DNA from: a virus
Lineage: Duplodnaviria; Heunggongvirae; Uroviricota; Caudoviricetes
Virus record (IMG/VR): IMGVR_UViG_2690316076_000004
Reading direction: 5' to 3' (one strand)
Length of the DNA stretch: 37,028 bases
A program made the position numbers and the translations under genes. How positions within the stretch are numbered: the stretch's first letter is position 1; every line of letters begins with the position of its first letter. The notes beneath the pieces were generated by a model. That model was not told the DNA's origin and ran no database searches. It saw nothing but the letters and a program-made list of their open reading frames with translations. Of the stretch, positions 1,614 to 29,184 are shown in pieces.

Positions 1614-1653
1614 GCCCCTATCGTTATAATACGCGGTAGGGGCGTTTTTGTTT
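1614..1653 (+). terminator. putative intrinsic terminator
   Basis: GCCCCTA...TAGGGGC stem followed by GTTTTTGTTT. Confidence 0.5.
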
Positions 1654-1662
1654 GGAAATGGT

Positions 1663-3342
1663 ATGAAAACTAAACTGTATTCGTATATTCGCTTCTCGTC
1701 TATGCGTCAGAATGATGGTTCGAGTTATGAACGACAAATCAGGATGGCGAGAGAGGTTGCGGCAAAGTATGACCTTGAACTGGTAAATGATTATCAGGAT
1801 CTGGGTGTATCTGCGTTTAAGGGTGCTAACTCTAAAACAGGGGCGCTATCTCGTTTCCTTGATGCAATTGGTAGATCCGTTCCTGTTGGTAGCTGGCTAT
1901 TCATTGAAAACTTGGACCGCTTATCCCGTGCCGATATTGTCAGTGCGCAGGAGTTATTCCTTTCAATCATCCGTAGGGGGATAACCATTGTTACTGGCAT
2001 GGATAACAAGATCTACTCGCTGGATACTGTTACCGCTAACCCGATGGACCTGATGTTCTCCATCCTTTTATTCATCCGTGGTAATGAGGAAAGCCAGACT
2101 AAGCGCAATCGTACTAACTCAAGCGCACTGATTAAGATTAAAGCTCATCAAGAAAATCCACAAAATCCGGCAGTGGCAATCGAGGAAGTTGGAAAGAATA
2201 TGTGGTGGACTGATACCACTTCCGGTTATGTGTTGCCTCATCCTACATACTTCCCTGTTGTTCAGGAGATTGTGGAATTACGGAAGAATGGACGTTCAAC
2301 CGCCGAAATACTGGATCACCTTAACGAGACATATACACCGCCACCAGCAGTAAGCAACAAGAAGCATTCAAAATGGTCACGGGCAATGGTTGAAAGGTTG
2401 TTCCATACCCGCGCTTTGATTGGTATCAAGGAAGTCTCTGTAGATGGTGTTAACTATGAGTTAAAGGATTATTACCCTCGTGTTATTGATGATGCTACGT
2501 TCTATCACCTTAAGAAAAATATTGGTGCTAGAGCATGGAACTTTGGAGACAAGGAAGAAGTTAAACCGATCCCCCTGCTTAGTGGTATTGGCCTATTGAA
2601 ATGTGATCATTGCGGTTGCGCTATGGTTAAAGTGAAGGGAACGAACAAACGTTCTGACCAGTATCGTTATACATGTGATGCGACCCGTTCACGTAGACTT
2701 GATTGCGAGCATCCAAACTGGAGTTTTCGAGGTGATCAATTAGAGAAAGCTGTATTGCAATTGCTGGCTGATAAAATATGGATTGCTGAGGACAAGGCTA
2801 ATCCGGTTCCGGCGTTGAAAGTACAGGTTGATGAAATATCACGCAAGATTGATAACCTGATTGCCCTTTCTGCTATGACAGGAGCAACGAAGGAGCTAGC
2901 CGATCAGATTACTACCCTCAATAGCGAGCGTGAAACACTCTACAATCAGATCAAGATGGCAGAAGAGGAAATGTATTCTGTGGACTCTCAAGGCTGGGAG
3001 AAGCTCGCAGAATTTGATTTAGAAGATGTTTATAACGAGGAACGACTAAAGGTCCGGTTTAAGATTAAGCAAGCTCTAAAGCGGATCGGGTGTAGCAGGA
3101 TTGACAGAAACAAAAACTTGTTTGTACTGGAATACATCGATGGAAAAACCCAGAGAGTTGTAATAGAAAATTCAAGAGGAACGAGGAAAGGCCGGATCTT
3201 CATTGATTTGAAGACTATCAATGATAGGCAGATTCTGGAGAGCAACGGGCTTGTTCTGCATCCATGTTTAGACATGCTGACAGATAAGAACTGGAAACCA
3301 GAAGAGGAAATACCAGGTCCATTACAGGAATTTGGAATTTAA
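1663..3342 (+). CDS. large serine recombinase (resolvase/integrase family)
   Basis: N-terminal resolvase catalytic pattern (YSYIRFSS...Q), recombinase domain, Cys-rich zinc ribbon (CDHCGC...CDATRSRRLDCEH), C-terminal coiled-coil; track start at 1648 is TTG, ATG at 1663 preferred. Confidence 0.85.
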   Translation: MKTKLYSYIRFSSMRQNDGSSYERQIRMAREVAAKYDLELVNDYQDLGVSAFKGANSKTGALSRFLDAIGRSVPVGSWLFIENLDRLSRADIVSAQELFLSIIRRGITIVTGMDNKIYSLDTVTANPMDLMFSILLFIRGNEESQTKRNRTNSSALIKIKAHQENPQNPAVAIEEVGKNMWWTDTTSGYVLPHPTYFPVVQEIVELRKNGRSTAEILDHLNETYTPPPAVSNKKHSKWSRAMVERLFHTRALIGIKEVSVDGVNYELKDYYPRVIDDATFYHLKKNIGARAWNFGDKEEVKPIPLLSGIGLLKCDHCGCAMVKVKGTNKRSDQYRYTCDATRSRRLDCEHPNWSFRGDQLEKAVLQLLADKIWIAEDKANPVPALKVQVDEISRKIDNLIALSAMTGATKELADQITTLNSERETLYNQIKMAEEEMYSVDSQGWEKLAEFDLEDVYNEERLKVRFKIKQALKRIGCSRIDRNKNLFVLEYIDGKTQRVVIENSRGTRKGRIFIDLKTINDRQILESNGLVLHPCLDMLTDKNWKPEEEIPGPLQEFGI

Positions 3343-6832: not shown

Positions 6833-9800
6833 TTAAGAAACAGAAATACCAGTAGCGGCTTTCTTAGTTACCATTACCGTTAGATCGCTGATATATGCAC
6901 TTGGGTTATAGTTGTTAACGCCCTTACAGTAAACTTCAAAAGTCATTGTTACTGCCCCGTGTCCGGCTGGCATGTCAATAACTCCACTGTACATACAGCC
7001 AGAAGTTGCAGTGCGATCATATAGAACACCACCATTTTTCTTAACGATTAGTCGGCAAGTATCCCAATGATCGCTACTTTCGCCACGACGAACAGACCCG
7101 TTATGATGAATCGCTGGAATCACTATTTGGCGATCGAATGGATGATCATCTTCGACCCTTACAGTGATTGCACCATCAGGCCAGTTTGGTTGGCGATGTG
7201 GGAAACTCCTACCAACCACTTTCACGAAGTCACCACGCACCTGATTAGCATCAAGCATACCCAAAATGCGGCAACTTGAATTAATCGTTACGTTGTTCAT
7301 TTCGCCGGAATCAGCCACCAAATGACCACGAATATTAGCGTGTCTAAAATGACAAGTGCCATCTTTGCCGATATACCATCCATCGTTACCATTCCAGTTA
7401 TAAGACTGGATATAGTTACCAATTTTAGCATTATCGATAGAGCCATCAATGATATGACCTGTTCCGATCTGTGCGTGTTGGATGTGAGCGCCGTTAATCT
7501 GGGCTGTGCCGATCTTAGCCGTGGTGATACTAGCATCACTAATCTGGGCTGTGCCAATTGCAGCATTACGAATCATCGCATTATCAAGATAAACTTTGTT
7601 ATCTTCGATGCCAAACGGACAAACTTCTGATCCGTCTTGTGGAGCTACCGCGATTTTATCAGCCGTAAAGATGATTCTTGTCGGTTCTGCCGGATCATTG
7701 GTTGCGCTCATATGAATACCAGCCACGCGACCATCTGCATTAACTGCCAGATTATATTTGCTGTTAATGGTTCCCTTCAAAGCATCGATTTTTACATCTG
7801 CTTCCTGATTCACACCAGCAATCTTGCCATCCATTTCTACCCGAACTTGATCAATCTTACTTGCGCTTGCTGCCTCACTGGTAGCAATTGCTTGTTTCAG
7901 GGTAGTAGCGGATGCGCTAACTTCTTTGGTGATATCGCCTTTCAGTTCAGCTTTAACCTGATCAATCTTAGTTGCGCTGGCTTGCTCACTGGTAGCAATC
8001 AGACTCTTGAGAGTATCGGCTGAGGCTTGGACCGTCTGCCCTGTCTCGGTAGTAATCTGTTTATGCATTGCATCAATCTTAGCATCGGCATTAGCGCCAG
8101 CTTGAGCAATAGCATCCGCGATGGTTTCATCTAAGCGATCTTGTAAACCAATCAGGTCTTCCAGTGCTTCTTTGTCCTGATCGTCCCAGCTAATGGTAGA
8201 TTTCATTTGCATGAAATACGGTTCAGACCAAACAGCATCATCCATACCGAAAATATCATAGTGAGCACCACGGATATAATAATCACCGTCAGCCAAATCA
8301 AAGGAAGTATGACTAACGCTATTGGTAGTCACTGCCCTTGCATCGGAGAAAGTATTATCGGTTGCATACTGGATGATTGACCCTGCATAGTCATGTTCTA
8401 CGTCATCCGCCCAGCTAACAAACGCAGTATTAAAGCCACCACGCGCACTAAAACCTTTCATCGGCTTATGTTGTGGGTTGATAGCCACTAAACGCGCTGG
8501 GGCGCTCTCTGAGTTGTTATAGCCCTTGACTGATACTTCTACCGTCAATTCACGGGAAAGGCCGTTAAACTGGTTCATATCAAGCGTATAAGTCCATGAT
8601 TCAGGATCGCGGGTACGGTACTGAATAGACTTACCAGCCTTGTTAGTTACCTTGATAATGTATGCTTCAAACAGGTCACTAAACTTGTTAGCTTCACCGT
8701 TGATCATCACATCTAATTGTTGCTGATTTTCCCATTCGATAATCAGATCATTGCCTTCGAAAGTACCAGGGGAGCTACCCTGATTTTTGATTCGAATAAC
8801 CGGAGTCGGCAATTCATAGGTAACAGTAGGATTCTGGTTAACCAGTTCCACCCATTCGGAACGAGCAATAATACCGAAAGCACAAACGCGGTAATCGTAG
8901 GAGCGATCTTTTGCCAGTGCATTGATATTGAAAATTTGCTGTGAAGTCTGTCCCAGCTTAATCCAGTTAGGTGATCCACTCACACGATAATCAATCTGGA
9001 AACCGTAGCGGTTGAAATCTTCCGGTGCATCCCATGTCAAAGTTACGTTTTTACCGTGGATGGTTTCACCAGTTGCCTTAATTCTGAAATTAGTAGGCTT
9101 CTGTACTGTCATTGAATCCGGTAAACCACTTGGTCGGTTATCTGGGTTAGCCGCATAGTTTAGGTCAGTATAAACCTGAGAATTATATTCTGTAGCGGTG
9201 ATAGTCATCATCCCAGCAATACCAGAATCAATAGAGCGATCAATTGCAGTAATACGCCAAAGTGAATTATTCAGTTTTAATTCATCATAGGTTACGCTGA
9301 TAACGTCCCATACTTCGGCGGTGAATGCGTCAGTAGTCATAAAGCTGATAACCTGAGTGATACGAGATTTATTTCGTTCTACACTCGCAAGTTTATCAAT
9401 CTGGGCTTTAGACTTAACAAAACGATATTCAATATCTTTAGCGATAATTCGACCATCTTGACGAATAGTAGCATCGTTTTCAGCATCAGCCGGATAACGT
9501 AGCATTTGCTCTGAATAGTCGATTGATGGTTCTTGATACATCGCGTTAATGGTATTGAAATAACCGTTAGTGCCACCTGTTTTCAGTGATACTTTTCCCA
9601 TCATGATATTGTCTTCATTGAAGGTATGCTTAACAATATCAGGAGCATCCAGTTTCAGCGTAATACGTCCAAAGGATTCGAACATCACCCCGCCGAAAGT
9701 CTGCATAAGGCTAGTTAAGTTCTCTTTAAAGCTGGCGTTCGGATCACATGCACCGTTGGAATGTAAATCCATCTGGCGTACTTGTTTACGCACTTTCAGG

Positions 9801-17829: not shown

Positions 17830-20800
17830 TTAACCAAATAATTTTGCTTCAATAGCAGCAAGACGTTCACGAAGGATTTTATTTTCTTCGCTCATTTCTT
17901 GAATTGCTTTGATTAAAAGCGCGTTCACTGCGGAGTTTGAAATTGTTAAAATCTCTTCTGGGTTATCAAGACCACCAATTTTTGCGGTTTTAACAGCTTC
18001 CGGTAATACCTCTTGTAAATCCTGTGCGATAATACCAATCTCATGACCTATAACTTCTCGGTCATTAAGAGATTTAACTTTATCGTAGGTTTTAACTTTG
18101 AGTTTATTTACCTTATCTACCGCATTTTCTTCGTAGTCTTCAACATTAATTTTCAGACGACGGTCGGAACGAATATACACATCGTTAAAGTTACCATTAC
18201 CTGGAGAATAGAAAGTGCCATCATGATGGAACTCGTAGACAGCTTGAGGATGACCAGCAGCAGGTGAGTTTTCCGCAGATCCAACACGAATAATTGCTTG
18301 TCCCCAATTGTTGGGGACACGACGCATACCAAAATCGACGGCAGTTGTATACCCTTGATTGGTTATTAAACTTCTTCCTTTGATAATCGGATAATAACAG
18401 TCCTGTGAAACATAACCATGATCGACGAATATTGGAGCTTCTAATGACCATTGGTCATTCCATGCGCCAGATTGGCTAGCAGTCCAACGTTCACCGTGAA
18501 CATAGAATCGAACGTTATTGACATGAGTCATTTCGACGCCTTTCGGACTTAGCGCGATATCCCCCGCATTTGTAATGTTTATGGCAGCATTAGTAGCATA
18601 GCTATAGAACGCTAATCCATTATCAGCGCCACCTTTACCGATATACCAGTTGTTATTATCAGCACAAGTACCCAACAAATATATAGACGAATCTCCACTT
18701 TCGGCATTCATGATGATTGCGTCAGATCCACGATTAACTTTCAGTTTCCCGAAAAATGTGTTTTTAATGGTATTATCACCCAATCGTTCAAATTCTGCGA
18801 AAAATCCTTTTGAGTCACGAAGACTTAAAACGTTATTTCGACCTGTATTGCTTGCCCCCCAATGGACGAGTTCCATATAGTCCATAGATTGACGAGAACC
18901 AGCTTTAAACAAAAGGTTGTCTTCGAGACGAGTGCTACCATCAATCCCAAGATGTAAACACCGAGCGGTCGTTGTGCCCCCTAGATCCAATCCACCCTCA
19001 GCGAAATCATAACTAAATGGTCTACGATTATTCCAATTTCCAAAAGAATCTTTTAAATCGGTAGTCAGTATATGGAAACCAGTACCATCATTTCTAAAAA
19101 TTAAGCCATAATTGCCACCTTTAACAGCCAAACGCGCATTTTCAGATAATGCAACTTCGCTATTCATTACAATTTTCTGGCCTTTACCACCAGTAATATG
19201 TAATTCACCATCTTCAATCAGGTTTATCGAGTTTTGACCGTTATCGTTCCACCAAATAAAATCTTTGGTCTGACCATCACCGAAGCCAAACCAGCCATTA
19301 CGAACATCTGTACCAGTGCGATAATCAAAGAAGTTTAAATGACATGATTCATTTGGACCACGACGAAAATCAATTGCTGAGTTTCCACCTAAACCGCCAT
19401 CAATGGTCATTCTACGAATATGCAAACCGGATGCAGCCGACAGCAATAATTGTTGGTTTACATCATCGTATCCAGTAGCAAGACGATAATTCTGATCATC
19501 TACAGTTTCATGCCAGATAGTAGCGGGTGCGGAACTACGGAAGCGACGCAACTTTTTCTTAGCATTTGTTTGTTGTTCGTTCAAATGCTCAATGTCATAT
19601 TGGCCTTGATGGTTTCCACCAAAATTTAACGTTCCACGGTTGCTAAAGTTATTGAATGATGAAATGTTAAGAGCATCAAAAATTTCATCTGCAACAGGTT
19701 TTTCACCACCCAGATATTCAGGAGTATCCAACAGGTTTAAAGAAACACCACCGGACGAAACTTGATATTCTGCTAAAACAAATCCTGTATGTGCACCGTA
19801 GTAAGCGTAAAGATCGTAATTATCGCCATCGGTAGGAATTGCGCAAAAATATTGTTCGTAATACCAAATGCTATAATAAGCATTGAATACAACACCTTTC
19901 GGGCTATTGTTGCCGCAACGGATCACCAGTTCAATAACATTGGCTTGTCCATTCTGTCCGACGTTATAACCGTTACCACCAACCAAACGAATCTTAGCGG
20001 TGCGACCGTGTTGTTGTGGCATTGTCAAAGTGCCTAGTTTAAACCAACCGCCCTCGATACCAAAATTAAGCGTCTTCTGGAACAGTCGGTCAATTTCTGC
20101 TTTCGAATATGCGCCAATTTCGGCAGGAGTAGGTTTATCACCTTCATGATACATGCGGTGAGAATATGCCAAATGACCCAATTCATCATAGCCGTATGTT
20201 CTTACCGTAGCATGTGGATTAGACCCATAAGTGAACTCAAAACCACGAGCATGATTAACACCGGATGGATGTGGAACATGCAAGATCATAGCAATATGAT
20301 CAGCTAGATCATTGGTACGGAATGCACCAAAGTAATCAAGATTACGAGCACCTGGATCATCAAAATAGTTTGCGGTCTTAGACAGCAAATAACCATCAGT
20401 ATAAGTGTTTACGTGTTTTTTGATGTACTTACCGTCACTAGATCCATCGGCTGCATCAATACGGCTTTCTAAACGTGCAAGTTCGGAATCGGTGTAAGAC
20501 TTGTTATTGTCAACTTTGCTATGAATTGCTGAATTTTTGGCTTCAACATCACGGGTTAATGCTGCGACGTTATCCGCTGCCTCTTGCTTATTGGCTGCAA
20601 TCACACCAGTAAGGTTATTGTAGGTGTCAGTTAACTGATTTTCCGCATAGGCTTTATTTGCTGCGATAGTCCGATCAGTCTCGGCCTTAATCAAATCAAC
20701 CTTGTCATTGATTGCTTTGTCATTGCTTGCGATGGTTGCATCGGTACGGGATTTAATATCATCAACTTTTTTATTGATGCGGGTGTCCAGTTCCTGTGTT

Positions 20801-21243
20801 GCTACAGCAGCCGCATTTTTATTAGCGTTGATAGTATCCGACAATTCAGCTTTAACACCAGCAAGGTCGGAAGCAGCTTTATTTTTATTGGCATCGATTG
20901 TCGCGTCGGTTTCGCGTTTAATTACATCAACTTTATTGTTAATTTCTACGTGATTTGCTGCGATGGTTGCATCAGTAGTTTGTTTAATTTCATCTACTTT
21001 AGCGTGAATATTGCGGTCATTTACTGCAATTGTACTATCCAGTTCTTGTTTGTTAGCATCAACTTTAGATTCTAGTGCCGCGTGAGTTTCAGGAGAAACA
21101 GAGATTTGAACTACTTCATGATCTCGGTCTTTGGTAAAAATAACATGGTCTTTAAGGTTGATTGCTACCTCACCGACCTGTAATTGTTCCGGCGTTGGTT
21201 TTTTGCCAGAAACATTTGTTCGTTTAAATTGGATCGACTGCAT
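17830..21243 (-). CDS. side tail fibre with C-terminal intramolecular chaperone (peptidase S74-type) domain
   Basis: C-terminal ~112 aa (SDRRLKINVEDY...AIQEMSEENKILRERLAAIEAKL) matches S74 chaperone-domain pattern, encoded at about 17833-18168; fibre-like repeats in N-terminal third; GAGGTGA RBS. Confidence 0.85.
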   Translation of the reverse strand: MQSIQFKRTNVSGKKPTPEQLQVGEVAINLKDHVIFTKDRDHEVVQISVSPETHAALESKVDANKQELDSTIAVNDRNIHAKVDEIKQTTDATIAANHVEINNKVDVIKRETDATIDANKNKAASDLAGVKAELSDTINANKNAAAVATQELDTRINKKVDDIKSRTDATIASNDKAINDKVDLIKAETDRTIAANKAYAENQLTDTYNNLTGVIAANKQEAADNVAALTRDVEAKNSAIHSKVDNNKSYTDSELARLESRIDAADGSSDGKYIKKHVNTYTDGYLLSKTANYFDDPGARNLDYFGAFRTNDLADHIAMILHVPHPSGVNHARGFEFTYGSNPHATVRTYGYDELGHLAYSHRMYHEGDKPTPAEIGAYSKAEIDRLFQKTLNFGIEGGWFKLGTLTMPQQHGRTAKIRLVGGNGYNVGQNGQANVIELVIRCGNNSPKGVVFNAYYSIWYYEQYFCAIPTDGDNYDLYAYYGAHTGFVLAEYQVSSGGVSLNLLDTPEYLGGEKPVADEIFDALNISSFNNFSNRGTLNFGGNHQGQYDIEHLNEQQTNAKKKLRRFRSSAPATIWHETVDDQNYRLATGYDDVNQQLLLSAASGLHIRRMTIDGGLGGNSAIDFRRGPNESCHLNFFDYRTGTDVRNGWFGFGDGQTKDFIWWNDNGQNSINLIEDGELHITGGKGQKIVMNSEVALSENARLAVKGGNYGLIFRNDGTGFHILTTDLKDSFGNWNNRRPFSYDFAEGGLDLGGTTTARCLHLGIDGSTRLEDNLLFKAGSRQSMDYMELVHWGASNTGRNNVLSLRDSKGFFAEFERLGDNTIKNTFFGKLKVNRGSDAIIMNAESGDSSIYLLGTCADNNNWYIGKGGADNGLAFYSYATNAAINITNAGDIALSPKGVEMTHVNNVRFYVHGERWTASQSGAWNDQWSLEAPIFVDHGYVSQDCYYPIIKGRSLITNQGYTTAVDFGMRRVPNNWGQAIIRVGSAENSPAAGHPQAVYEFHHDGTFYSPGNGNFNDVYIRSDRRLKINVEDYEENAVDKVNKLKVKTYDKVKSLNDREVIGHEIGIIAQDLQEVLPEAVKTAKIGGLDNPEEILTISNSAVNALLIKAIQEMSEENKILRERLAAIEAKLFG

Positions 21244-21254
21244 CGAATCACCTC

Positions 21255-21291
21255 ACTATAAAACAGGAATAAGGGAGGCGTTAACCTCCCG
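21255..21291 (-). terminator. putative terminator between 277-aa gene and fibre gene
   Basis: GGGAGG-N6-CCTCCC stem followed on minus strand by U-rich tract. Confidence 0.45.
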
Positions 21292-21316
21292 CGTCATGTT
21301 TTATTTAGAGAAGCAA

Positions 21317-22150
21317 TCAGTATTCCCCGAAGTCGATCCGGTCATGGATAGAAACGGCTTCAATCTCGGCTGGTGTCGGTTTTTCTTCTGTGGAATACAC
21401 TTTCACCCATCCAGAATTACCGTCTTTCTGGACTGTGCGAACTCGTAAACGTGGTGCGCCGGAAGCGGTGCAAGTTAATTGCCATCCACCATCTTCATTA
21501 GGTTGAACGTGAATTAGTGAAGTATCAGCACTAAATGGATTAGATACGCTCGATCCCTGATAAGTTACGAAACGGTTTCCGGCTAATGCTTCGCTATCAA
21601 TCGGACCTGTGAATGGATGTACACCAGCGCCCAAACCAAAATCACCTTGACGTAAGATCCGGCCTTCGGTGGCAATACCACGGTCGAGAATCCCACCATC
21701 AGGATCTAATTTAAATTCGATGGTAGTAACTTTGTTATCGCTACCACGGGTTTTGTGTGATGTGACGTATGCATCAAAAATGACGTAGTATCCTGTGTTA
21801 GCAGCACTATAGCCAGAGTTCACAACATAGAACATACGGAAGCGTAAAGGGGTTTTATCCTCTACCGCTTTCATCAACATTGCTTGATGTTCATCATCCA
21901 GAACACGGTTTACTGTGAGTGTTGTTGATTCAAGTTTACGATAGCCAGCCAACTTACCAGTAACATCATGGTTATATTCTTCTAACGTCTGGATCTCTGT
22001 GGATTCGGTGATCGTAGGGAATGCTGCGATGTTCTCGATAGGACTAAATGCAGGATCGAAAAAGTCCGGCTGGTTATCCACCATAGTAGACACGGAGACT
22101 TCAACATGCGACCCCGTGAAAATGTCTAAGTTATCTTGTGTAATATTCAT
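21317..22150 (-). CDS. hypothetical virion protein (possible fibre-associated/collar protein)
   Basis: 277 aa; shares KPTPAEI motif with the fibre; located between U-like and fibre genes; function not recognisable. Confidence 0.45.
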   Translation of the reverse strand: MNITQDNLDIFTGSHVEVSVSTMVDNQPDFFDPAFSPIENIAAFPTITESTEIQTLEEYNHDVTGKLAGYRKLESTTLTVNRVLDDEHQAMLMKAVEDKTPLRFRMFYVVNSGYSAANTGYYVIFDAYVTSHKTRGSDNKVTTIEFKLDPDGGILDRGIATEGRILRQGDFGLGAGVHPFTGPIDSEALAGNRFVTYQGSSVSNPFSADTSLIHVQPNEDGGWQLTCTASGAPRLRVRTVQKDGNSGWVKVYSTEEKPTPAEIEAVSIHDRIDFGEY

Positions 22151-22159
22151 TATTACCCC

Positions 22160-22582
22160 TTAAAAACGCGCTACATAAGAAAATTTAAGGCTAAGTGTCC
22201 CAACGATACCCCCATCACTAGAATCATCGTCATAATCGGTATTAGAGGCTACTGGAGTGATATCTGAAATAGAGAAGCCCAAATCTTTAAAACGTGGGTT
22301 ATCCGGCTGAATCTGGATTATCTGGCAAATACCCTCATGAATTTTGGTTTCATGATTCTGAGAATACAACTGCATTTCGATAACGCATTCAGCTTGCATT
22401 GCATTACCACCACGGACCCTAGTGTAAGTCTCATTCATTCCAGTAATCCAACAAACCACGTCATCACTAAAGCCTTGCTGAGTTTGTTCTACGTTTAAAG
22501 CCAGACCTAAATCTTGTTCGATAATATCCTGCAAGGCGCGTTTGATTTTCAGTCTAGGCATATTATTAACGGTAGCGAGCAT
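22160..22582 (-). CDS. tail terminator protein, lambda U-like (tentative)
   Basis: ATG at 22582 with AGGGGG RBS preferred (track start 22663 overlaps upstream gene by ~100 nt); C-terminal acidic DYDDDSSDGG stretch resembles lambda U pattern. Confidence 0.45.
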   Translation of the reverse strand: MLATVNNMPRLKIKRALQDIIEQDLGLALNVEQTQQGFSDDVVCWITGMNETYTRVRGGNAMQAECVIEMQLYSQNHETKIHEGICQIIQIQPDNPRFKDLGFSISDITPVASNTDYDDDSSDGGIVGTLSLKFSYVARF

Positions 22583-22856
22583 GTGTACCCCCTGCACGAG
22601 CAATAAAGCAATCAGAAGTATTATCACCATTGCGCTTAACGTATTGAACTTTGAAGCGTTCACCGTCTACAATGACAACATCACCCTGATTTAAGTCTCC
22701 CTCACGACAAAATAGAAATTCTGATTCTGTAATTACCCCTTGTTCGTCGGTAGTAGTAATTTCATGATAAGCACGAATTGATTTACCACCTTCCACCGAA
22801 AATACAGGAGCACTCTTAAACATTCTTGATAATTGTGATTCTGATAATTTGAACAT
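22566..22856 (-). CDS. head-tail joining protein, lambda FII-like
   Basis: QGDVVIVDGERFKVQYVKRNGDNTSDCF resembles remembered FII C-terminal pattern; first gene after capsid; AAGGGGG RBS. Confidence 0.5.
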   Translation of the reverse strand: MFKLSESQLSRMFKSAPVFSVEGGKSIRAYHEITTTDEQGVITESEFLFCREGDLNQGDVVIVDGERFKVQYVKRNGDNTSDCFIARAGGTHARYR

Positions 22857-22882: not shown

Positions 22883-22913
22883 ATACAAAAAAGCCCCACC
22901 GTTAGGCAGGGCT
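22883..22913 (-). terminator. intrinsic terminator downstream of capsid gene
   Basis: minus-strand AGCCCUGCC-UAAC-GGUGGGGCU followed by UUUUUUGU. Confidence 0.65.
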
Positions 22914-23050: not shown

Positions 23051-25054
23051 TCATTCAGAGACGTGAAGAACTTTCAGAGCTTCCGGCTGGGTAACTACAT
23101 AATCCAGATCTACCCAGATACGCGGAACGATCGCGCCCTGTGCTCTGTAGGTTGAATCGTCCAGATCTAGCTCAAGACCGCCCCATTCACCGATGGTAAT
23201 AGCGGAGAAGTCACCCAGAACGATGTGGTCTACCGGAATAACACCAGAAGTAACTACTTCGTAACCAGCCAGTTTACCGTTTTCGATGATATAACCGGAA
23301 ACGCCGTTATCTTTCAGGGTAGATTCCAGTTCAGCAGCAGTTGCACCGCTCATCGCAAACTTGATCGCCTGAGCAGGAACGCCAGCGTCGGTCAGTTTAG
23401 CGATTTCTTTCAGGAAGTCTTTGTAAGAGAAAGCAGCTTTCTTCTCAACACGGCTTGCATCAACCAGTTGTTTAATCACACCAGCCGGACCACGAGCATT
23501 ATCTTTATCAGACAGAATCAGTTGTTCCAGTTTGATGCGAACAGCCTGGTTAATGTGATCAGTGATCAGGGTAGCGATGCCCGGAACGGTTTTCAGAGAC
23601 TGACGGCTGATCGGGTTGCCACCAGCAAAAGTTTTCGGAGCCATTTTCACGTTTGCAAATTCTGCTTTACCTTCCGGTGCAGCACCGTTTTCATCAACGA
23701 AGCCGAAAGATTCAACGCTGGAAGCGGTCATTTTAGGAATAGCGGTCGGCGAAGTCAGACCAGACAGGACTTTCACACCAAGACGACCCAGAACGGATTC
23801 CGGTAACAGCATCGCTACATAGGAATCATTCAGCAGTTTTTCGTCGGTTACAGCTTCCAGAGTAGTTTTGGTGTTACCATCAGCAGCAGCACGCATAGCA
23901 GCAGTCGGAACGAATACAGAGCCACCACGAGCAGCACGACCACGCTGCATTGCAGCACCAGCAGCCATAGCAGAAAACTCGGCTTCGTTAGCACCCAGAG
24001 CAGCACCATCTACCAGAGAGCGAATTACGTTGTTCAGGTCAAAAGTTTTTTCCATTTTAGAGTCCTTAATTTGTTCGTTATTACGTTGAGCATTGGTAAT
24101 GTTATTTAGTGCCTTAGTGCGGAATGCTTCCGGCGTCATTTCTTTATTTGCCAATGCGCGTTTCAATTCTTCGTCGTCAATATTTAGTTCCCGCGCGATC
24201 TCGCGGATTTCTAATTCGTCTTCTTCGGAACGTTCAGCCACTTCCTCGATTTCTTCTTCTTCAACCGGAGCAGCTTCACGTTCTTCTTTTATTTCTTCTG
24301 TTTCCCGAACAGTTGAACTATCATCATCAACACTTTCAGGATGTTCAGCGTCTTTTCCGTCTTCGAGATTTTCATTTTCTTCATTCTCTTCAGCTTGGCG
24401 CTCTTGAGTTTCTTCAACTTCCGGTTCTTTATTTTCTTCTACCGGAGTTTCTTCAACCTGAGCGACTTCTTTTTCTTCGTCTTTAACTTGTTCGATTTGT
24501 TCTTTAGTCATATCGCGTTTAGCCTCCAAATTAACTGTGATAGTATTTAGAGAGCGATTTAAACCGACCGAATCGTCAGCAGGAACTGTCACAAATGAAA
24601 TTTCAAAGGGTGCCCACTTAGTAACAATCAATTGTCCTTTAGCGTAATCGATGTGATACTCTTTAATGTCATAGCCGACCGATATTTTTTCCATCGTACC
24701 TTCAATGACTTTATTACGAATATCATTAGCCAAAGTCCCATGCTTAGAGAATTTAACCAGAGCACGGCCTACGTTATCCGCATCGATTCGAGCGTTACAG
24801 ACAACACCAATGTGATTATCGAAATTATGATTGAACAGCAACGGAGCGTTATTATTCAGGCGAGACAGATCAACCGCTTCCGGTGTATGTACCAGAATTT
24901 CATCTAATACCACCATTTCTTGATTTTGCTCATCCCAGAATTGGCGCTGGTAAGGCTGGGTACTGGAGAAAGCAATTTCAAATTCGTATTGATCGTTATG
25001 CCCTTCGTTAATAACTCCACCGTAACCGTTAAGATCGCGGCGAAATTTAAGCAT
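23051..25054 (-). CDS. fused prohead protease - scaffold-like acidic linker - HK97-fold major capsid protein
   Basis: N-terminal ~200 aa with prohead-protease-like His/Ser motifs, central Glu-rich coiled region, C-terminal ~330 aa capsid-like; AAAGGTGA RBS. Confidence 0.8.
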   Translation of the reverse strand: MLKFRRDLNGYGGVINEGHNDQYEFEIAFSSTQPYQRQFWDEQNQEMVVLDEILVHTPEAVDLSRLNNNAPLLFNHNFDNHIGVVCNARIDADNVGRALVKFSKHGTLANDIRNKVIEGTMEKISVGYDIKEYHIDYAKGQLIVTKWAPFEISFVTVPADDSVGLNRSLNTITVNLEAKRDMTKEQIEQVKDEEKEVAQVEETPVEENKEPEVEETQERQAEENEENENLEDGKDAEHPESVDDDSSTVRETEEIKEEREAAPVEEEEIEEVAERSEEDELEIREIARELNIDDEELKRALANKEMTPEAFRTKALNNITNAQRNNEQIKDSKMEKTFDLNNVIRSLVDGAALGANEAEFSAMAAGAAMQRGRAARGGSVFVPTAAMRAAADGNTKTTLEAVTDEKLLNDSYVAMLLPESVLGRLGVKVLSGLTSPTAIPKMTASSVESFGFVDENGAAPEGKAEFANVKMAPKTFAGGNPISRQSLKTVPGIATLITDHINQAVRIKLEQLILSDKDNARGPAGVIKQLVDASRVEKKAAFSYKDFLKEIAKLTDAGVPAQAIKFAMSGATAAELESTLKDNGVSGYIIENGKLAGYEVVTSGVIPVDHIVLGDFSAITIGEWGGLELDLDDSTYRAQGAIVPRIWVDLDYVVTQPEALKVLHVSE

Positions 25055-25096: not shown

Positions 25097-26611
25097 TTAT
25101 TGGGGATCGGTTTGAGAAGGGTTATCCTTGCTCTCACCATCAACGATAATATTTAGTGCGCTCTTTTCGGCTTGAATCTCTGAGAATACTTTTTCAGGAT
25201 CATCACCACGTTCTAATATAACGGCAGTACGTGATTTAAGTCCTTTATCAATTAAAGCAATCTCGGCGTTTACGTCTTTAATAGGATCGACGGATTCAAA
25301 ACGCGGACGAATAATAGTAGTGTTGTCGATAATATGCGGAATTGCAGTAATACGAATCGGAACAATACCACGCGCGGAATAATGGCGTAGATATGCTTCG
25401 AAAATTGGCAATACCACGGTTTCAATCAATTTGTTTTGCAGTGCTTTAACACGGTTACGCTGAGTTAATTCACCAAAACGCGCGGCTGAGTAGTTAATCT
25501 GGGAAGTGTCACCAGTCAAGCCCTGTTTAAACACGCCAAGACCCATCGCTATATGGGTGAACATGCCATCGTTGAAGCTGATAAAGTCATCACCGTTTTG
25601 CGTCGCCTGAATACTCTTGATCGTTGCCCCTTCCGGCAATTCCTGAATAGTACCAGGTGCAAAATCCTGTACTACTTCCGGCGCTTGATATTGTTCATCC
25701 TCTTCACCAGTATCAAAATCGTCACCAGAATCTTTCGGACGTTCAATAAAGCCCATAGAGCTAGCTGCAATACGTTTCTGGATGATCGCGGTTTCGCGGA
25801 ACGCTTCTTGATGAGCAATATCCTTAATCACTGGCAGGAAGTCAGTCACACCACGTAAACTTTCCGCGCACAGTGGCTGGTAGTAGTGGCACACCTGAGA
25901 AGCATCTACGCGATAATTTTCGCCAGTGTAGGTCTGAGTCAGTAGATTGATTTTTCTAAACCAGTATGCTACAGGGCGCATTGTTTCTACGTCATACTCA
26001 ATCCCTTGAAAGATCGCGCGGTCTTTGCTTATTTCACGACTAAGCGACCAGTCGCACCTATCAGCAGACAGAATAGAAACTTGTAACTCGTTGTTTTCTT
26101 TGGTTAAAACGATGAAGCATTCTCCACCCTGAACACGTTCAGATTCTGCCATTGCCAGCATTTCACGGAAGTTAAAGCGACCGTTGCGAGAGAAGCGTTT
26201 AGCACTCTGCGCCCACTTCCAGAAAGCATTCTCGATCTGCTTATTCAGTGCGGTGTCAAGTTTGCCATTTGATTTAACGATTGATGGTTTCGGATCAAGC
26301 CCCGTACCAACAACTTGGTCAACGATATACTGCTTGTATCGCTTGCCTACAGCATTGTTTATAGCCAGAGTACGACCCTGATCATAAAGGCGCTTACCGT
26401 TCGATTTGAGAGCCTTATTGAACGTTCCGGTGATAGTATCTTGTTGAAGCTGTCCATCAATTCGATCACCGACTAAGCCCAAAGAACGCTTAGACAAATC
26501 TTTCTGGAATTTTTCTACTTGTTTGTCGATAAAGATTTTTTGTTGTTGCTGGCGGTGATTAGTTTTAACTGGAGTTTCTACCGCCTTTTTGCGTCGAAAA
26601 AGATTAAACAT
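25097..26611 (-). CDS. portal protein, lambda gpB-like
   Basis: IAMGLGV...YSAARF segment resembles remembered gpB (IAAGLGVSYEQL...YSTAR); 504 aa; between W-like and capsid genes. Confidence 0.85.
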   Translation of the reverse strand: MFNLFRRKKAVETPVKTNHRQQQQKIFIDKQVEKFQKDLSKRSLGLVGDRIDGQLQQDTITGTFNKALKSNGKRLYDQGRTLAINNAVGKRYKQYIVDQVVGTGLDPKPSIVKSNGKLDTALNKQIENAFWKWAQSAKRFSRNGRFNFREMLAMAESERVQGGECFIVLTKENNELQVSILSADRCDWSLSREISKDRAIFQGIEYDVETMRPVAYWFRKINLLTQTYTGENYRVDASQVCHYYQPLCAESLRGVTDFLPVIKDIAHQEAFRETAIIQKRIAASSMGFIERPKDSGDDFDTGEEDEQYQAPEVVQDFAPGTIQELPEGATIKSIQATQNGDDFISFNDGMFTHIAMGLGVFKQGLTGDTSQINYSAARFGELTQRNRVKALQNKLIETVVLPIFEAYLRHYSARGIVPIRITAIPHIIDNTTIIRPRFESVDPIKDVNAEIALIDKGLKSRTAVILERGDDPEKVFSEIQAEKSALNIIVDGESKDNPSQTDPQ

Positions 26612-26621
26612 GATTTACCCC

Positions 26622-27119
26622 TTATCGCGTAAGACGTAATTTGATATTTTTAATCGGGCTAATTCCCTGTTTACGTCGTTCGGCTTGAATTAATTTTGAT
26701 AACTGACGTTCATAATCAGTCTTTAATTGCTGGAGAACACCTAATGACTCATAGGCGAAAGTATTCCCTTTCACTGTCATTTGAGATAATGCGGCTTCGT
26801 CCCCAGATAAACGGGCGAAAATAACTTGCTCGATTAAGGTGATAGTTTCCCGCAGATATTCTTTTTTGGATTGTTTGGCGAATACTGGTAAAACAGTTAA
26901 TTCCTGCATTGATATCAGTTCTTCTTCCAAAGTTATTACGATGGTATATTTACCTTCGGCAAAATCTAAGGTTTTAATCTCATGATTAGCCGGAGAATCA
27001 TCAACCTGATAGATGATACCTTTATTATTATTTCCTACCTGAATTGTTACACCCTCTTCATTCGCCAGCGTGACTTTTTCGCCTTTACGAATTACTAAGG
27101 GAATTAGTTCTAAACTCAT
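26622..27119 (-). CDS. head-tail joining protein (W-like) with N-terminal extension (tentative)
   Basis: position between terL and portal as for lambda W; no firm motif. Confidence 0.35.
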   Translation of the reverse strand: MSLELIPLVIRKGEKVTLANEEGVTIQVGNNNKGIIYQVDDSPANHEIKTLDFAEGKYTIVITLEEELISMQELTVLPVFAKQSKKEYLRETITLIEQVIFARLSGDEAALSQMTVKGNTFAYESLGVLQQLKTDYERQLSKLIQAERRKQGISPIKNIKLRLTR

Positions 27120-27191: not shown

Positions 27192-29099
27192 TTAGAACGA
27201 TGTTACCCAGCTACGGCCTCTATTTGGGCGTCTGGCGATGTTTTGACGTTGCGGTCGTGTGATTGGCTTAGTTTCTTCTATTTGCTCGTCAGATTGCGAT
27301 TTAGGAGCTTCTACGGATTCTTCGACAACACGGTTTAAGCTGTCTTTCATTGCAATGAGTTTATCCCATGACATTTTTGAAAGAACGTAGCGAGAAGCAG
27401 CATAGCTATAAACCAGACAGTCGAGAGCCTCGTTTCGGGTACTACCTGGATTTTTCACCCAACGCACGCCAGTAGTAGTACGCTTGATGGATTCACTCAA
27501 AAGCTGATCGAGATAATCATCAGGAACGGTTTCTGATATTTCTAAGCCAATATGAGGATTATCTTTCAGGTTTCTAACCAGCATTTCACGAACAGCGGAT
27601 TTCCCAACGTTAACACCCAGCATAAGCAATTCATGACCACCTGTACGGGTAGGTTTAACCGGAATCACTGGAGCATTACCAGATGAACTACCTTTGATAG
27701 CGTGTAGGTTCTTCCACTTGCCGCAAATACGGTATCCGGCTTGAGTGAATCGACCGTTCGATGTATCAAGGAAACTGGCGAGCATTGGTACACGTTCACC
27801 ATTAACGTTATAGAATTTGGTTTTCTTGAAGTTAACCAGACGATCCCAAACAGGTGATTCATATCGTTCACAGTTATGATCGTAAAAGCTGCGGTGATCC
27901 AGAATGTAAACCTTATCTTTCGCTACACCTAAGATGGTAGATTCTGCGCGGTCCAATTGCTGGTCAATTCCTGAGCACAAGAAAATCACGTCATCAGGGA
28001 TATTCTCGATAGAAACATCTGTTTTGAGTTGTTCCAGTTCATTTGCTTCTACTGCCGTGTCCTGATCGTCGTATACCTTGCCTAACACGGTGTTATAAAA
28101 TGATTGTAAATCAAAGGATTGCCACGCATGGCTAAAATCAACAACACAAGCGCGGATCGTGCTGAAAGGTGAATACAGACGGCTAATCCAGAATCCAGCT
28201 ACTTCACTTTCTCTCGTTACTCGCCATTCACCAGCAGCCACCGCCCTGATCCGCTCTCCTTCTGTCCATGCGTTCTTACAGTGGGGGCAAATATAACGAG
28301 CGGTATCAGGATCGGGTAAGTTCTTACCATCGATGTTACGCCATTCAAATTGAACGTTTTCCCACTCGATCACCTGGTGTTCCCCGCAATGAGGACACGG
28401 AACAAAAAACATACGCATATCGCTTGATAACCATTGCTGGTTAATGCTTCCGAGCTTACTGGTCGGGGTGCTGGATACGACTAATCGACCTTCATCGCCA
28501 AAGGTAGTTAAACGGTTAGCAGCCAGTGCCACCGGATCACCTTCTTCTGAGGCTGTAGCAGCATCGATTTCGTCAAGTAATCCAACCTTTGCGGTCTTAC
28601 CGCGTAGGGTTGATGGACTGGTAAGCGATACCATGTAAAGGAAGTGATTCGTTTTTAGCTGTAGCTGGTTATTGTTGTTAACCGCATTGCGATCATTCTT
28701 GTCTGTAACAACGTCTTTTAATGCATCACATGCTTCGATAGACGGTCGGATCTTACCAGCGAGATATTGAGACATTTCTTTAGCGGTTGATTGTCCGATA
28801 ATCATATTGCATGGATCGTTAGCCATCTGGTTAAACAGGATACCGTTCAGGATGGTAGTCTTTCCGATCTGTGCACTGGTCATCAGGACATACTTTTTCT
28901 TGTTCTCAAGGAAAGGTGCATCAATCATGCCTTTTTGGAATGACAACAATTTAACTTTATCCCCAGCTTGAGGACCATCTACCAGCACCATATTCGCTTC
29001 GCACCATTCAGACGGAAGGAGTTTAGGCGGTGGAGTGATATATTTTGCGGCATTTTTAAGAATCTTTTTTAATTTGGCCTTGTTCGAAATCAGTTTCAT
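27192..29099 (-). CDS. terminase large subunit, lambda gpA-like
   Basis: [26 protein letters not shown] (Walker A-like), [21 protein letters not shown] all mirror remembered gpA motifs; ATG at 29099 with GAGGG RBS preferred over track start 29174. Confidence 0.93.
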
Positions 29100-29142
29100 G
29101 TAATTACCCTCATTACGAAATATGAAGGTATTTATTAAATTG

Positions 29143-29170
29143 TTGATATTTTGATAAATACGGGTATTAA
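29143..29170 (+). promoter_or_regulatory. candidate sigma70-type promoter in divergent terL/HTH-gene intergenic region
   Basis: TTGATA (29143-29148), 16-nt spacer, TATTAA (29165-29170), about 15 nt upstream of the 29185 ATG. Confidence 0.35.
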
Positions 29171-29184
29171 TCAAAGGGGGTTGT

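Follow-up and report, generated by a model that had tools for sequence, protein, structure and literature searches.

The DNA stretch analyzed here, IMG/VR virus record IMGVR_UViG_2690316076_000004, has a length of 37,028 nucleotides (the window) and represents a temperate siphovirus prophage of E. coli of about 36 kb. The structural genes were read as minus-strand open reading frames (ORFs), and all genes and domains described below, as well as the hairpins at 21273-21290 and 16332-16351, lie on the minus strand of the window unless stated otherwise. Their order is capsid, FII-like protein, probable tail terminator, a protein of 277 amino acids (aa), a fibre protein of 1137 aa, three paralogs of about 100 aa, tail tube protein, G, T, and tape measure protein. 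In an initial annotation, the fibre genes had been described as a side-tail-fibre module inserted between a U-like and a V-like gene of a lambda-like operon. The ORFs and their order turned out to be real, with a weak U-like identity, and the fibre module indeed resides at a place where lambda has none. The proposed range of 17830-22150 includes the 277-aa gene (21317-22150) and the fibre gene (17830-21243), but it omits the three paralogs, and the full block extends from the 277-aa gene down to 16884, the end of the third paralog. The 277-aa protein is very probably an attachment adaptor for the fibre, and these two proteins are the main subject of this study.

The 277-aa protein's N-terminal part forms a tail-tube-fold domain (residues ~11-160, 21671-22120). 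Residues 11-154 matched phrog_158, annotated as major tail protein, with an E-value of 1.1e-8, and the same family was matched by 20 of 20 homologs. This is also the family of the canonical tail tube protein of 156 aa (16360-16830; phrog_158, 3.5e-20; Pfam Phage_TTP_12, 7.3e-5), the gene of which immediately precedes G/T and the tape measure gene. BLASTP aligned the 277-aa and the 156-aa proteins over the whole tube domain with an identity of about 20% (E 1e-5). An AlphaFold2 (AF2) model of the 277-aa protein was built on 20 homologs, and the predicted local distance difference test (pLDDT) values were calculated as means of 10-residue blocks. For residues 11-160 they were mostly 72-94, with dips to about 50 at residues 51-70 and to 58 at residues 111-120, and the low-scoring loop 54-69 is found at the place of the long hairpin in tube proteins. 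The best Foldseek matches of this domain were the polymerising tube proteins of 80alpha (3.6e-7), lambda (gpV, 8.8e-7), SaPI1, and monocin. The E-values of the tube protein matches ranged from 4e-7 to 1e-5, over about 155 aligned columns, with target-normalised template modelling (TM) scores of 0.55-0.67 (0.59-0.67 for the top matches). This tube-protein fold comprises a beta-sandwich, a flanking helix, and a long hairpin. The fold matches also included the YDC107 tail structure, which is an ordinary lambda-like tube, and Hcp proteins. Structure prediction, which had been proposed earlier as a check for this protein, led to tube proteins. The 277-aa gene does not hold the position adjacent to G/T, and the fibre gene, the three paralogs, and the 156-aa gene separate it from G. 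In summary, the 277-aa protein is a paralog of the 156-aa tube protein and not a connector, and therefore the fibre genes lie between two tube-type genes. A Z-like connector identity had been considered and was rejected on the basis of this paralogy.

The C-terminal part of the 277-aa protein has a different relationship. A fibre-type globular domain (residues ~161-249, 21404-21670) is followed by a gp36-type docking tail (residues 250-277, 21320-21403). The C-terminal ~115 residues aligned to residues 298-380 of the fibre (BLASTP E 1e-3), and the C-terminal parts of homologs matched tail-fibre PHROGs, e.g. phrog_16472 with 7e-20. The protein ends with ...KPTPAEIEAVSIHDRIDFGEY, and its last 28 residues, KVYSTEEKPTPAEIEAVSIHDRIDFGEY, matched gp36 of the T4-like Krischvirus, which terminates with ...ELYHEGHKPTPAEVGAVPLNAVIDFGTF, from end to end with 46% identity (E 3e-5). 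The C-terminus of T4 gp36 is ...DSVQDFGYY. The docking tail follows the pattern KPT-x-x-[DE]...D-F-G-aromatic at the extreme C-terminus. It is kept in all relatives with a two-gene arrangement, and in longer homologs extra fibre modules separate the first KPT motif from the terminal D-x-I-D-F/L-G tail, which is conserved. BLAST comparisons of the 277-aa protein with gp36 of Krischvirus or T4 revealed only short KPT motifs and no N-terminal gp36 homology. As the N-terminal 160 residues have a tube fold and are not gp36-like, the protein carries a gp36-type end and is not a member of the gp36 family. The motif KPTPAEI, from which an attachment or adaptor role had been suggested, is indeed common to both proteins; it comprises residues 257-263 of the 277-aa protein (21362-21382) and residues 370-376 of the fibre (20116-20136). 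An exact 7-mer common to both proteins occurred by chance in 13 of 20,000 shuffles, and the shared motif belongs to a genuine homology with fibre joints. This homology, the gp36-type tail, and the match of the fibre N-terminus described below all support the adaptor role.

The 1137-aa fibre matched phrog_1699 (long tail fiber distal subunit, 6e-129) and the Pfam families Peptidase_S74 (3.3e-15) and Gp34_trimer (6e-12). Its N-terminus, MQSIQFKRTNVSGKKPTPEQLQVGEVAINLKDHVIFTKD, aligned to the N-terminus of T4 gp37 (gp37 residues 4-61) with 39% identity over 64 residues (E 9e-16), and residues 1-50 (21094-21243) were annotated as a gp37-type N-terminal domain, or plug. This domain is kept in all relatives, while the remaining fibre varies. 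It is followed by a repeat-rich spacer (residues ~51-267, 20443-21093), which is specific for the prophage lineage and probably forms a coiled coil; it showed a weak match of the apolipoprotein type. In a Proteus relative the equivalent segment is a separate protein of 198 aa. The distal fibre (residues ~288-1137, 17833-20382) includes an S74 intramolecular chaperone (residues 1026-1085, 17989-18168). In the E. coli relatives, conservation spans the region from the capsid gene through the anchor gene to about fibre residue 68 and then ends, which is the pattern expected for an attachment domain with exchangeable receptor-binding parts.

The distal fibre (residues ~288-1137) and the three small ORFs together have a nucleotide identity of about 84% to gp37 and the downstream ORFs of the Krischviruses KFS-EC and vB_EcoM_G37-3. 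G37-3 contains ORFs of 98, 101, and 100 aa, in an order identical to that of the three prophage paralogs (paralog 1, 98 aa, 17494-17790; paralog 2, 101 aa, 17186-17491; paralog 3, 100 aa, 16884-17186). The single ORF of KFS-EC looks like paralog 1 fused to an end that resembles paralog 3. Paralogs 2 and 3 have identities of 35% and 26%, respectively, to paralog 1, and the motif FDIPNGW is common to paralogs 1 and 2. All three tandem paralogs (16884-17790) have the FDIPNGW motif, and the Trp at their position 4 is conserved; the corresponding regions are 7464-8370 in locus L001 and 7581-7904 in locus L002. The model of paralog 1 had pLDDT values of 73-90 at residues 22-98, and the N-terminal 21 residues were disordered. 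A jelly-roll was predicted, with PBSX XepA (7.0) and the heads of C1q, TNF, and BclA (6.5-6.7) as the closest structures and further resemblance to viral fibre tips, C1q-domain proteins, and folds like those of carbohydrate-binding modules. Judged from this model, the three paralogs could plausibly be tip-associated binding or accessory proteins, and it is a speculation that they might form a C1q-like heterotrimeric tip. Other E. coli relatives have different distal parts and accessory genes at the fibre locus. In many of them, the interval from the tube gene to G additionally contains a Gp38-type adhesin gene, which encodes a 'receptor recognizing protein Gp38' of 168 aa (e.g. L009, 7229-7735, and many IMG/VR loci such as L025-L048), and this interval represents another unusual site of insertion within the tail operon. 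A GIY-YIG nuclease gene was observed within the fibre/tube region of further relatives.

For a comparative analysis, about 110 related loci were gathered from E. coli genomes, other assemblies, and IMG/VR, and about 90 of them had enough sequence to be read. The region was matched in 55 of 5426 complete E. coli genomes (about 1%), and a near-identical prophage interrupts ycdX in E. coli UTAK-14. All of the ~90 readable loci showed the order capsid, FII-like, 140-aa type, tube-domain fibre protein, an optional separate fibre, zero to three accessory genes, tube, G, T, and tape measure. They span E. coli, Salmonella, Proteus, more distant Enterobacterales, and metagenome contigs. The conserved order is therefore the norm of the group and not the result of a recent insertion. 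This bears directly on the initial annotation, in which the block was described as inserted, and on the corresponding reading of the whole block as a recent foreign acquisition, a moron-like side-fibre module that breaks an otherwise lambda-like tail operon. The ~84% nucleotide identity of the distal fibre and the paralogs to T4-like phages and the variable content between the anchor and the tube gene are in agreement with such an event. However, all ~90 readable loci, down to protein identities of ~26-40%, have both the anchor and the fibre N-terminus at the same position, and the anchor has the tube protein of this phage as its paralog. The order kept across these loci led us to reject a recent acquisition of the entire block, to which we give very little credence. 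Recent exchange is confined to the cassette made up of the distal fibre plus the small paralogs, and the terms 'inserted' and 'interrupted' hold for this cassette alone. A norm of the group combined with a Z-like connector had been named beforehand as the finding that would speak against a fibre module; the first half of it was observed in the synteny comparison, but the protein is a tube paralog.

The two halves of the presumed joint co-occurred strictly. Among 59 distinct loci, 34 encode a tube-domain protein of 275-699 aa that ends with D-[FLA]-G-x-x, and in 34 of 34 cases a plug-bearing fibre gene follows. The other 25 loci encode a single tube-domain/fibre fusion of 472-1351 aa and have neither the socket tail nor a separate plug-bearing fibre. 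Discordant loci were not found (0 of 59). In a Proteus mirabilis relative, the fibre itself is split into a 198-aa protein, which contains the plug, the coiled coil, and the C-terminus ...DLIMDFGTF, and a 675-aa protein that starts with a plug. Because this split fibre has both a terminal tail and a second plug, the gp36/gp37-type joint is used twice. The existence of longer homologs (341-1351 aa) in which the same N-terminal region extends into a fibre raised the question of whether the 277-aa gene might be a degenerating, functionless remainder of a former full-length tube-anchored fibre. However, the length remains at 275-281 aa across relatives that range from E. coli to those in Proteus and Edwardsiella, 48 positions, including the terminal tail, are invariant, and both halves of the gene are under purifying selection (dN/dS 0.11-0.28, and 0.11-0.19 for the gene as a whole). 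Together with the strict co-occurrence with a plug-bearing fibre, these features led us to reject a pseudogene remnant, and a functionless stub appears extremely improbable.

The family was found to be large in sequence databases. A search of 1.84 billion representative proteins with the family profile yielded 271 matches at E <= 1e-3, more than 100 of which carry the tube domain and the first fibre domain at the N-terminus of proteins of 400-1650 aa. Named members stem from Enterobacter, Klebsiella, Serratia, Rouxiella, Leclercia, and Pantoea, and they are annotated only as hypothetical, tail fibre, or pyocin-knob proteins. A megablast search of 50,697 phage records with the head and tail regions did not reveal a relative, and in a tblastn search of the same records only PQ671644 ('DCP80') was found to encode a family member. 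This record (PQ671644.1, 'Escherichia phage DCP80', loci L004 and L114) is filed as a Gaprivervirus of 141 kb, but it has the appearance of an assembly chimera. A siphovirus of the prophage family, including a 698-aa tube-domain/fibre fusion, makes up the first ~27 kb; T4-like genes come next, with two copies of rIIA in inverted orientation. Two scans of the genomes that represent species in GTDB gave no match, and the automatically chosen peptide patterns used for these scans were probably too narrow.

In T4, gp36 in its trimeric form binds to gp37's N-terminal region, and distal half-fibre assembly is thereby started (Leiman et al. 2010, PMC3004832). A gp36-type tail on a tube body and a gp37-type N-terminus on the fibre led us to view the 277-aa protein as the socket and the fibre as the plug. 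In this model, the 277-aa protein would be built into or onto the tail tube via its tube domain, probably as a dedicated ring, and its gp36-like end would serve as a socket into which the gp37-like fibre would plug non-covalently. The 156-aa protein is the regular subunit of the tube. A host-range cassette that is exchanged with T4-like Krischvirus would consist of the three jelly-roll paralogs and of the fibre's distal two thirds, which include the self-cleaving S74 chaperone. We consider it likely that the tube-paralogous 277-aa protein anchors a T4-type long fibre on a lambda-like tail via a gp36/gp37-type joint. The position of the anchor ring may be viewed in two ways. The adjacency of its gene to that of the probable terminator suggests that it is head-proximal, i.e. 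the last ring. The side-fibre function and, by analogy, the precedent of initiator rings with a tube fold suggest that it might instead be tip-proximal, i.e. the first ring.

The gap between the anchor and the fibre gene contains a terminator-like hairpin (21273-21290), GGGAGG-TTAA-CGCCTCCC, which has a 7-bp stem with five G-C pairs and is followed by a weak T tract, TTATTCCTGTTTTAT. It had been reported as a hairpin of the block; it is real, but it is internal and not located at the end of the block. Structurally conserved hairpins of unrelated sequence occur at the equivalent place in distant relatives, and the hairpin may attenuate expression of the fibre. A hairpin just after the 277-aa gene could also mean that this gene is expressed above the fibre. 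Together with the full-length tube fold and the family shared with the 156-aa protein, this would fit a major or co-major tube subunit, the C-terminal domain of which decorates the whole tail, with fibres or empty sockets along the tube, comparable to the Ig domain of lambda gpV or to SPP1 gp17.1*. However, it is the 156-aa protein that occupies the canonical position before G/T, has the far better phrog_158 score (3.5e-20 versus 1.1e-8), and is followed by a strong terminator, a terminator-like hairpin with a T run at 16332-16351. Mixed rings are unlikely because the two paralogs are just ~20% identical, and a fibre of 472-1351 aa, as it is fused to the tube domain in 25 related loci, would be hard to fit on every ring. 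A role of the 277-aa protein as a major or co-major subunit is thus regarded as unlikely. Two further hairpins were observed, a strong 9-bp hairpin, TAGCGGGGA-TTTC-TCCCCGCTA, between the fibre stop codon and paralog 1 (17802-17823), and a strong terminator-like hairpin with a T run after the capsid gene (22892-22913).

The genes upstream of the anchor are those of a head and its connection to the tail. They encode the large terminase (27192-29174), an unnamed 165-aa ORF at the position of lambda W in the interval between terminase and portal (26622-27119), the portal (25097-26611), and a prohead protease/major capsid fusion (23051-25054). The C-terminal half of the 165-aa ORF is gpW-like by eye only, it has an extra N-terminal part of ~80 residues, and family searches gave no significant match. 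The FII-like head-tail joining protein (96 aa, 22566-22856) matched Pfam Phage_attach (gpFII) with an E-value of 2.5e-5 and 25.2 bits, just below the curated cut-off of 26, and phrog_161 (head closure) with 1.7e-3. The next gene (22160-22582) encodes the probable tail terminator of 140 aa; its longest ORF (167 aa) begins at 22663, and the Prokaryotic Genome Annotation Pipeline (PGAP) gives 140 aa in relatives. Sequence and profile searches of Pfam and PDB gave no match for the 140-aa protein, and PHROG tail-terminator families were matched weakly by 2 of 10 members of its family (phrog_78, 1.1e-3; phrog_176, 0.025). From these weak similarities, it is probably the U-like terminator.

These neighbors are of importance because the 277-aa gene is located where lambda has U, and terminators have the fold of tube proteins. 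The 277-aa protein might thus act in the U or Z position, as the tail terminator or as a different connector of head and tail, and bear neck fibres, and the weak terminator matches of the 140-aa neighbor would leave room for such a role. However, the structures closest to it, over ~155 aligned positions, are those of polymerising tube proteins and not of terminators, and it belongs to the tube protein's own PHROG. In addition, the gene at the W position, W-like by eye only, the FII-like gene, and the 140-aa gene already constitute a minimal connector set. We regard a terminator or connector that carries neck fibres as quite unlikely.

Several observations weigh against the proposed anchoring of the fibre by the 277-aa protein. 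Searches of Pfam, NCBIfam, and PDB sequences gave no match for this protein, and its tube domain was found via PHROGs and structure prediction only. With pLDDT values of 31-54, the C-terminal domain was modelled too poorly by AF2 for a fold comparison. The likeness to T4 gp36 itself is confined to the terminal DFG-aromatic motif, and a BLAST comparison of T4 gp36 with the 28-residue tail found an internal KPxxA motif only and not the C-terminus. We infer physical docking only from homology and co-occurrence, and likewise we infer ring formation, the position on the tail, and the number of fibres. A hexameric tube ring with trimeric fibres poses a symmetry problem, and a six-fold ring would need either two fibres per ring or chains from several rings. 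Lastly, as the terminator identity of the 140-aa protein is weak (2 of 10 members), a terminator role of the 277-aa protein is unlikely rather than firmly excluded.

The remaining tail genes follow after the 156-aa tube gene. They encode the G-like protein (102 aa, 15969-16277; Phage_TAC_13, 1.9e-4), the T-like protein (113 aa, 15598-15939; Phage_tail_T, 2e-4), and the tape measure protein (810 aa, 13154-15586), which was assigned by position alone. A tail tip of the phiJL001/gene transfer agent (GTA) type comes after the tape measure gene. It includes a J-like protein of 1248 aa (6833-10579), the C-terminus of which is the receptor-binding domain of lambda GpJ (Ig_GpJ_C, 1.6e-34); otherwise the surrounding tail tip is of the phiJL001/GTA type (Phage_phiJL001_Gp84_N, DUF6950). 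Because the J-like protein has this domain beside the fibre, the phage has two separate receptor-binding devices. A 256-aa ORF (11045-11815) between a hub-like gene (11890-12543) and the DUF6950 gene (10579-11013) contains three NUMOD3 motifs (Pfam, 1.1e-21) and looks like a homing endonuclease; the UTAK-14 relative lacks it at the corresponding place. On the plus strand, a large serine recombinase with Resolvase, Recombinase, and Zn_ribbon_recom domains (1648-3342) is likely the integrase.

A comparison with known systems revealed that both parts of the proposed device have counterparts. The gp37-type fibre N-terminus, the gp36-type tail of the anchor, and the Krischvirus-like distal fibre with its small ORFs resemble T4 and the T-even phages, and the order of socket, fibre, and small accessory ORFs mirrors the order g36-g37-g38 and its gp36-gp37 joint. 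In contrast to these phages, the prophage has no equivalents of gp34 or gp35 and no contractile-tail baseplate. A tail-tube domain replaces the part of gp36 that contacts gp35, so that a half-fibre would sit on a siphovirus tube-type protein. Lambda gpV, with its Ig-like domain, also combines the tube fold with an outward-facing extra domain, and SPP1 gp17.1* is likewise a tube protein with a C-terminal extension. However, the extended protein of the prophage is a separate, divergent paralog and not the tube protein itself or a frameshift product, and it is extended by a fibre joint, or in relatives by an entire fibre of up to ~1350 aa, and not by an Ig/FN3 decoration. The lateral fibres of T5 (pb1 on p132) and lambda Stf/Tfa are also accessory side fibres on a non-contractile tail, which add reversible adsorption to a binder of the J or central fibre type. 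In these two phages, the anchor is an Ig-like collar protein or J, whereas that of the prophage has a tube fold, and unlike the lambda stf/tfa genes the fibre genes of the prophage lie between the terminator-like and the tube gene and not after J. A Tfa-type assembly protein was not matched among the window proteins scanned. It is established that lambda Stf and T4 gp37 exchange fibre modules. The 'evolved' Hcp of type VI secretion systems (T6SS; Hcp-ET) is a tube-protein paralog with a functional C-terminal extension that exists beside an ordinary tube subunit, but its cargo is a toxin and not a receptor-binding fibre. There is no sequence relationship, and the likeness is an analogy only.

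Taken together, the device is a combination of known kinds, a tube protein with an extension and a T-even fibre joint. Literature searches, the coverage of which was incomplete, returned no relevant account of a fibre anchored by a tube protein or of an additional tube protein, and anchoring by a tube-protein paralog poses the questions of where the ring sits and how trimers fit a hexamer. The results offer a function for a conserved 'hypothetical protein' that occurs in about 1% of the complete E. coli genomes as well as in numerous further prophages of Enterobacterales. As an extension, which we put forward tentatively, a widespread Enterobacterales lineage of ~30-36-kb prophages might mount its side fibres via a dedicated tube paralog, either covalently, as in the 472-1351-aa fusions, or by a gp36/gp37-type socket and plug. 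If true, this mode of mounting would be a new solution for trimeric fibres on a tube ring of six-fold symmetry, and the joint, which is shared with T4-like myoviruses, would represent a standard connector by which T-even receptor-binding cassettes move directly onto siphovirus tails. The use of a gp36/gp37-type joint by both virulent T4-like myoviruses and temperate siphoviruses would explain how receptor-binding cassettes can pass between them, as the ~84% nucleotide identity illustrates, and this is relevant for the prediction of host ranges and for fibre engineering by swaps at a defined plug-socket boundary.

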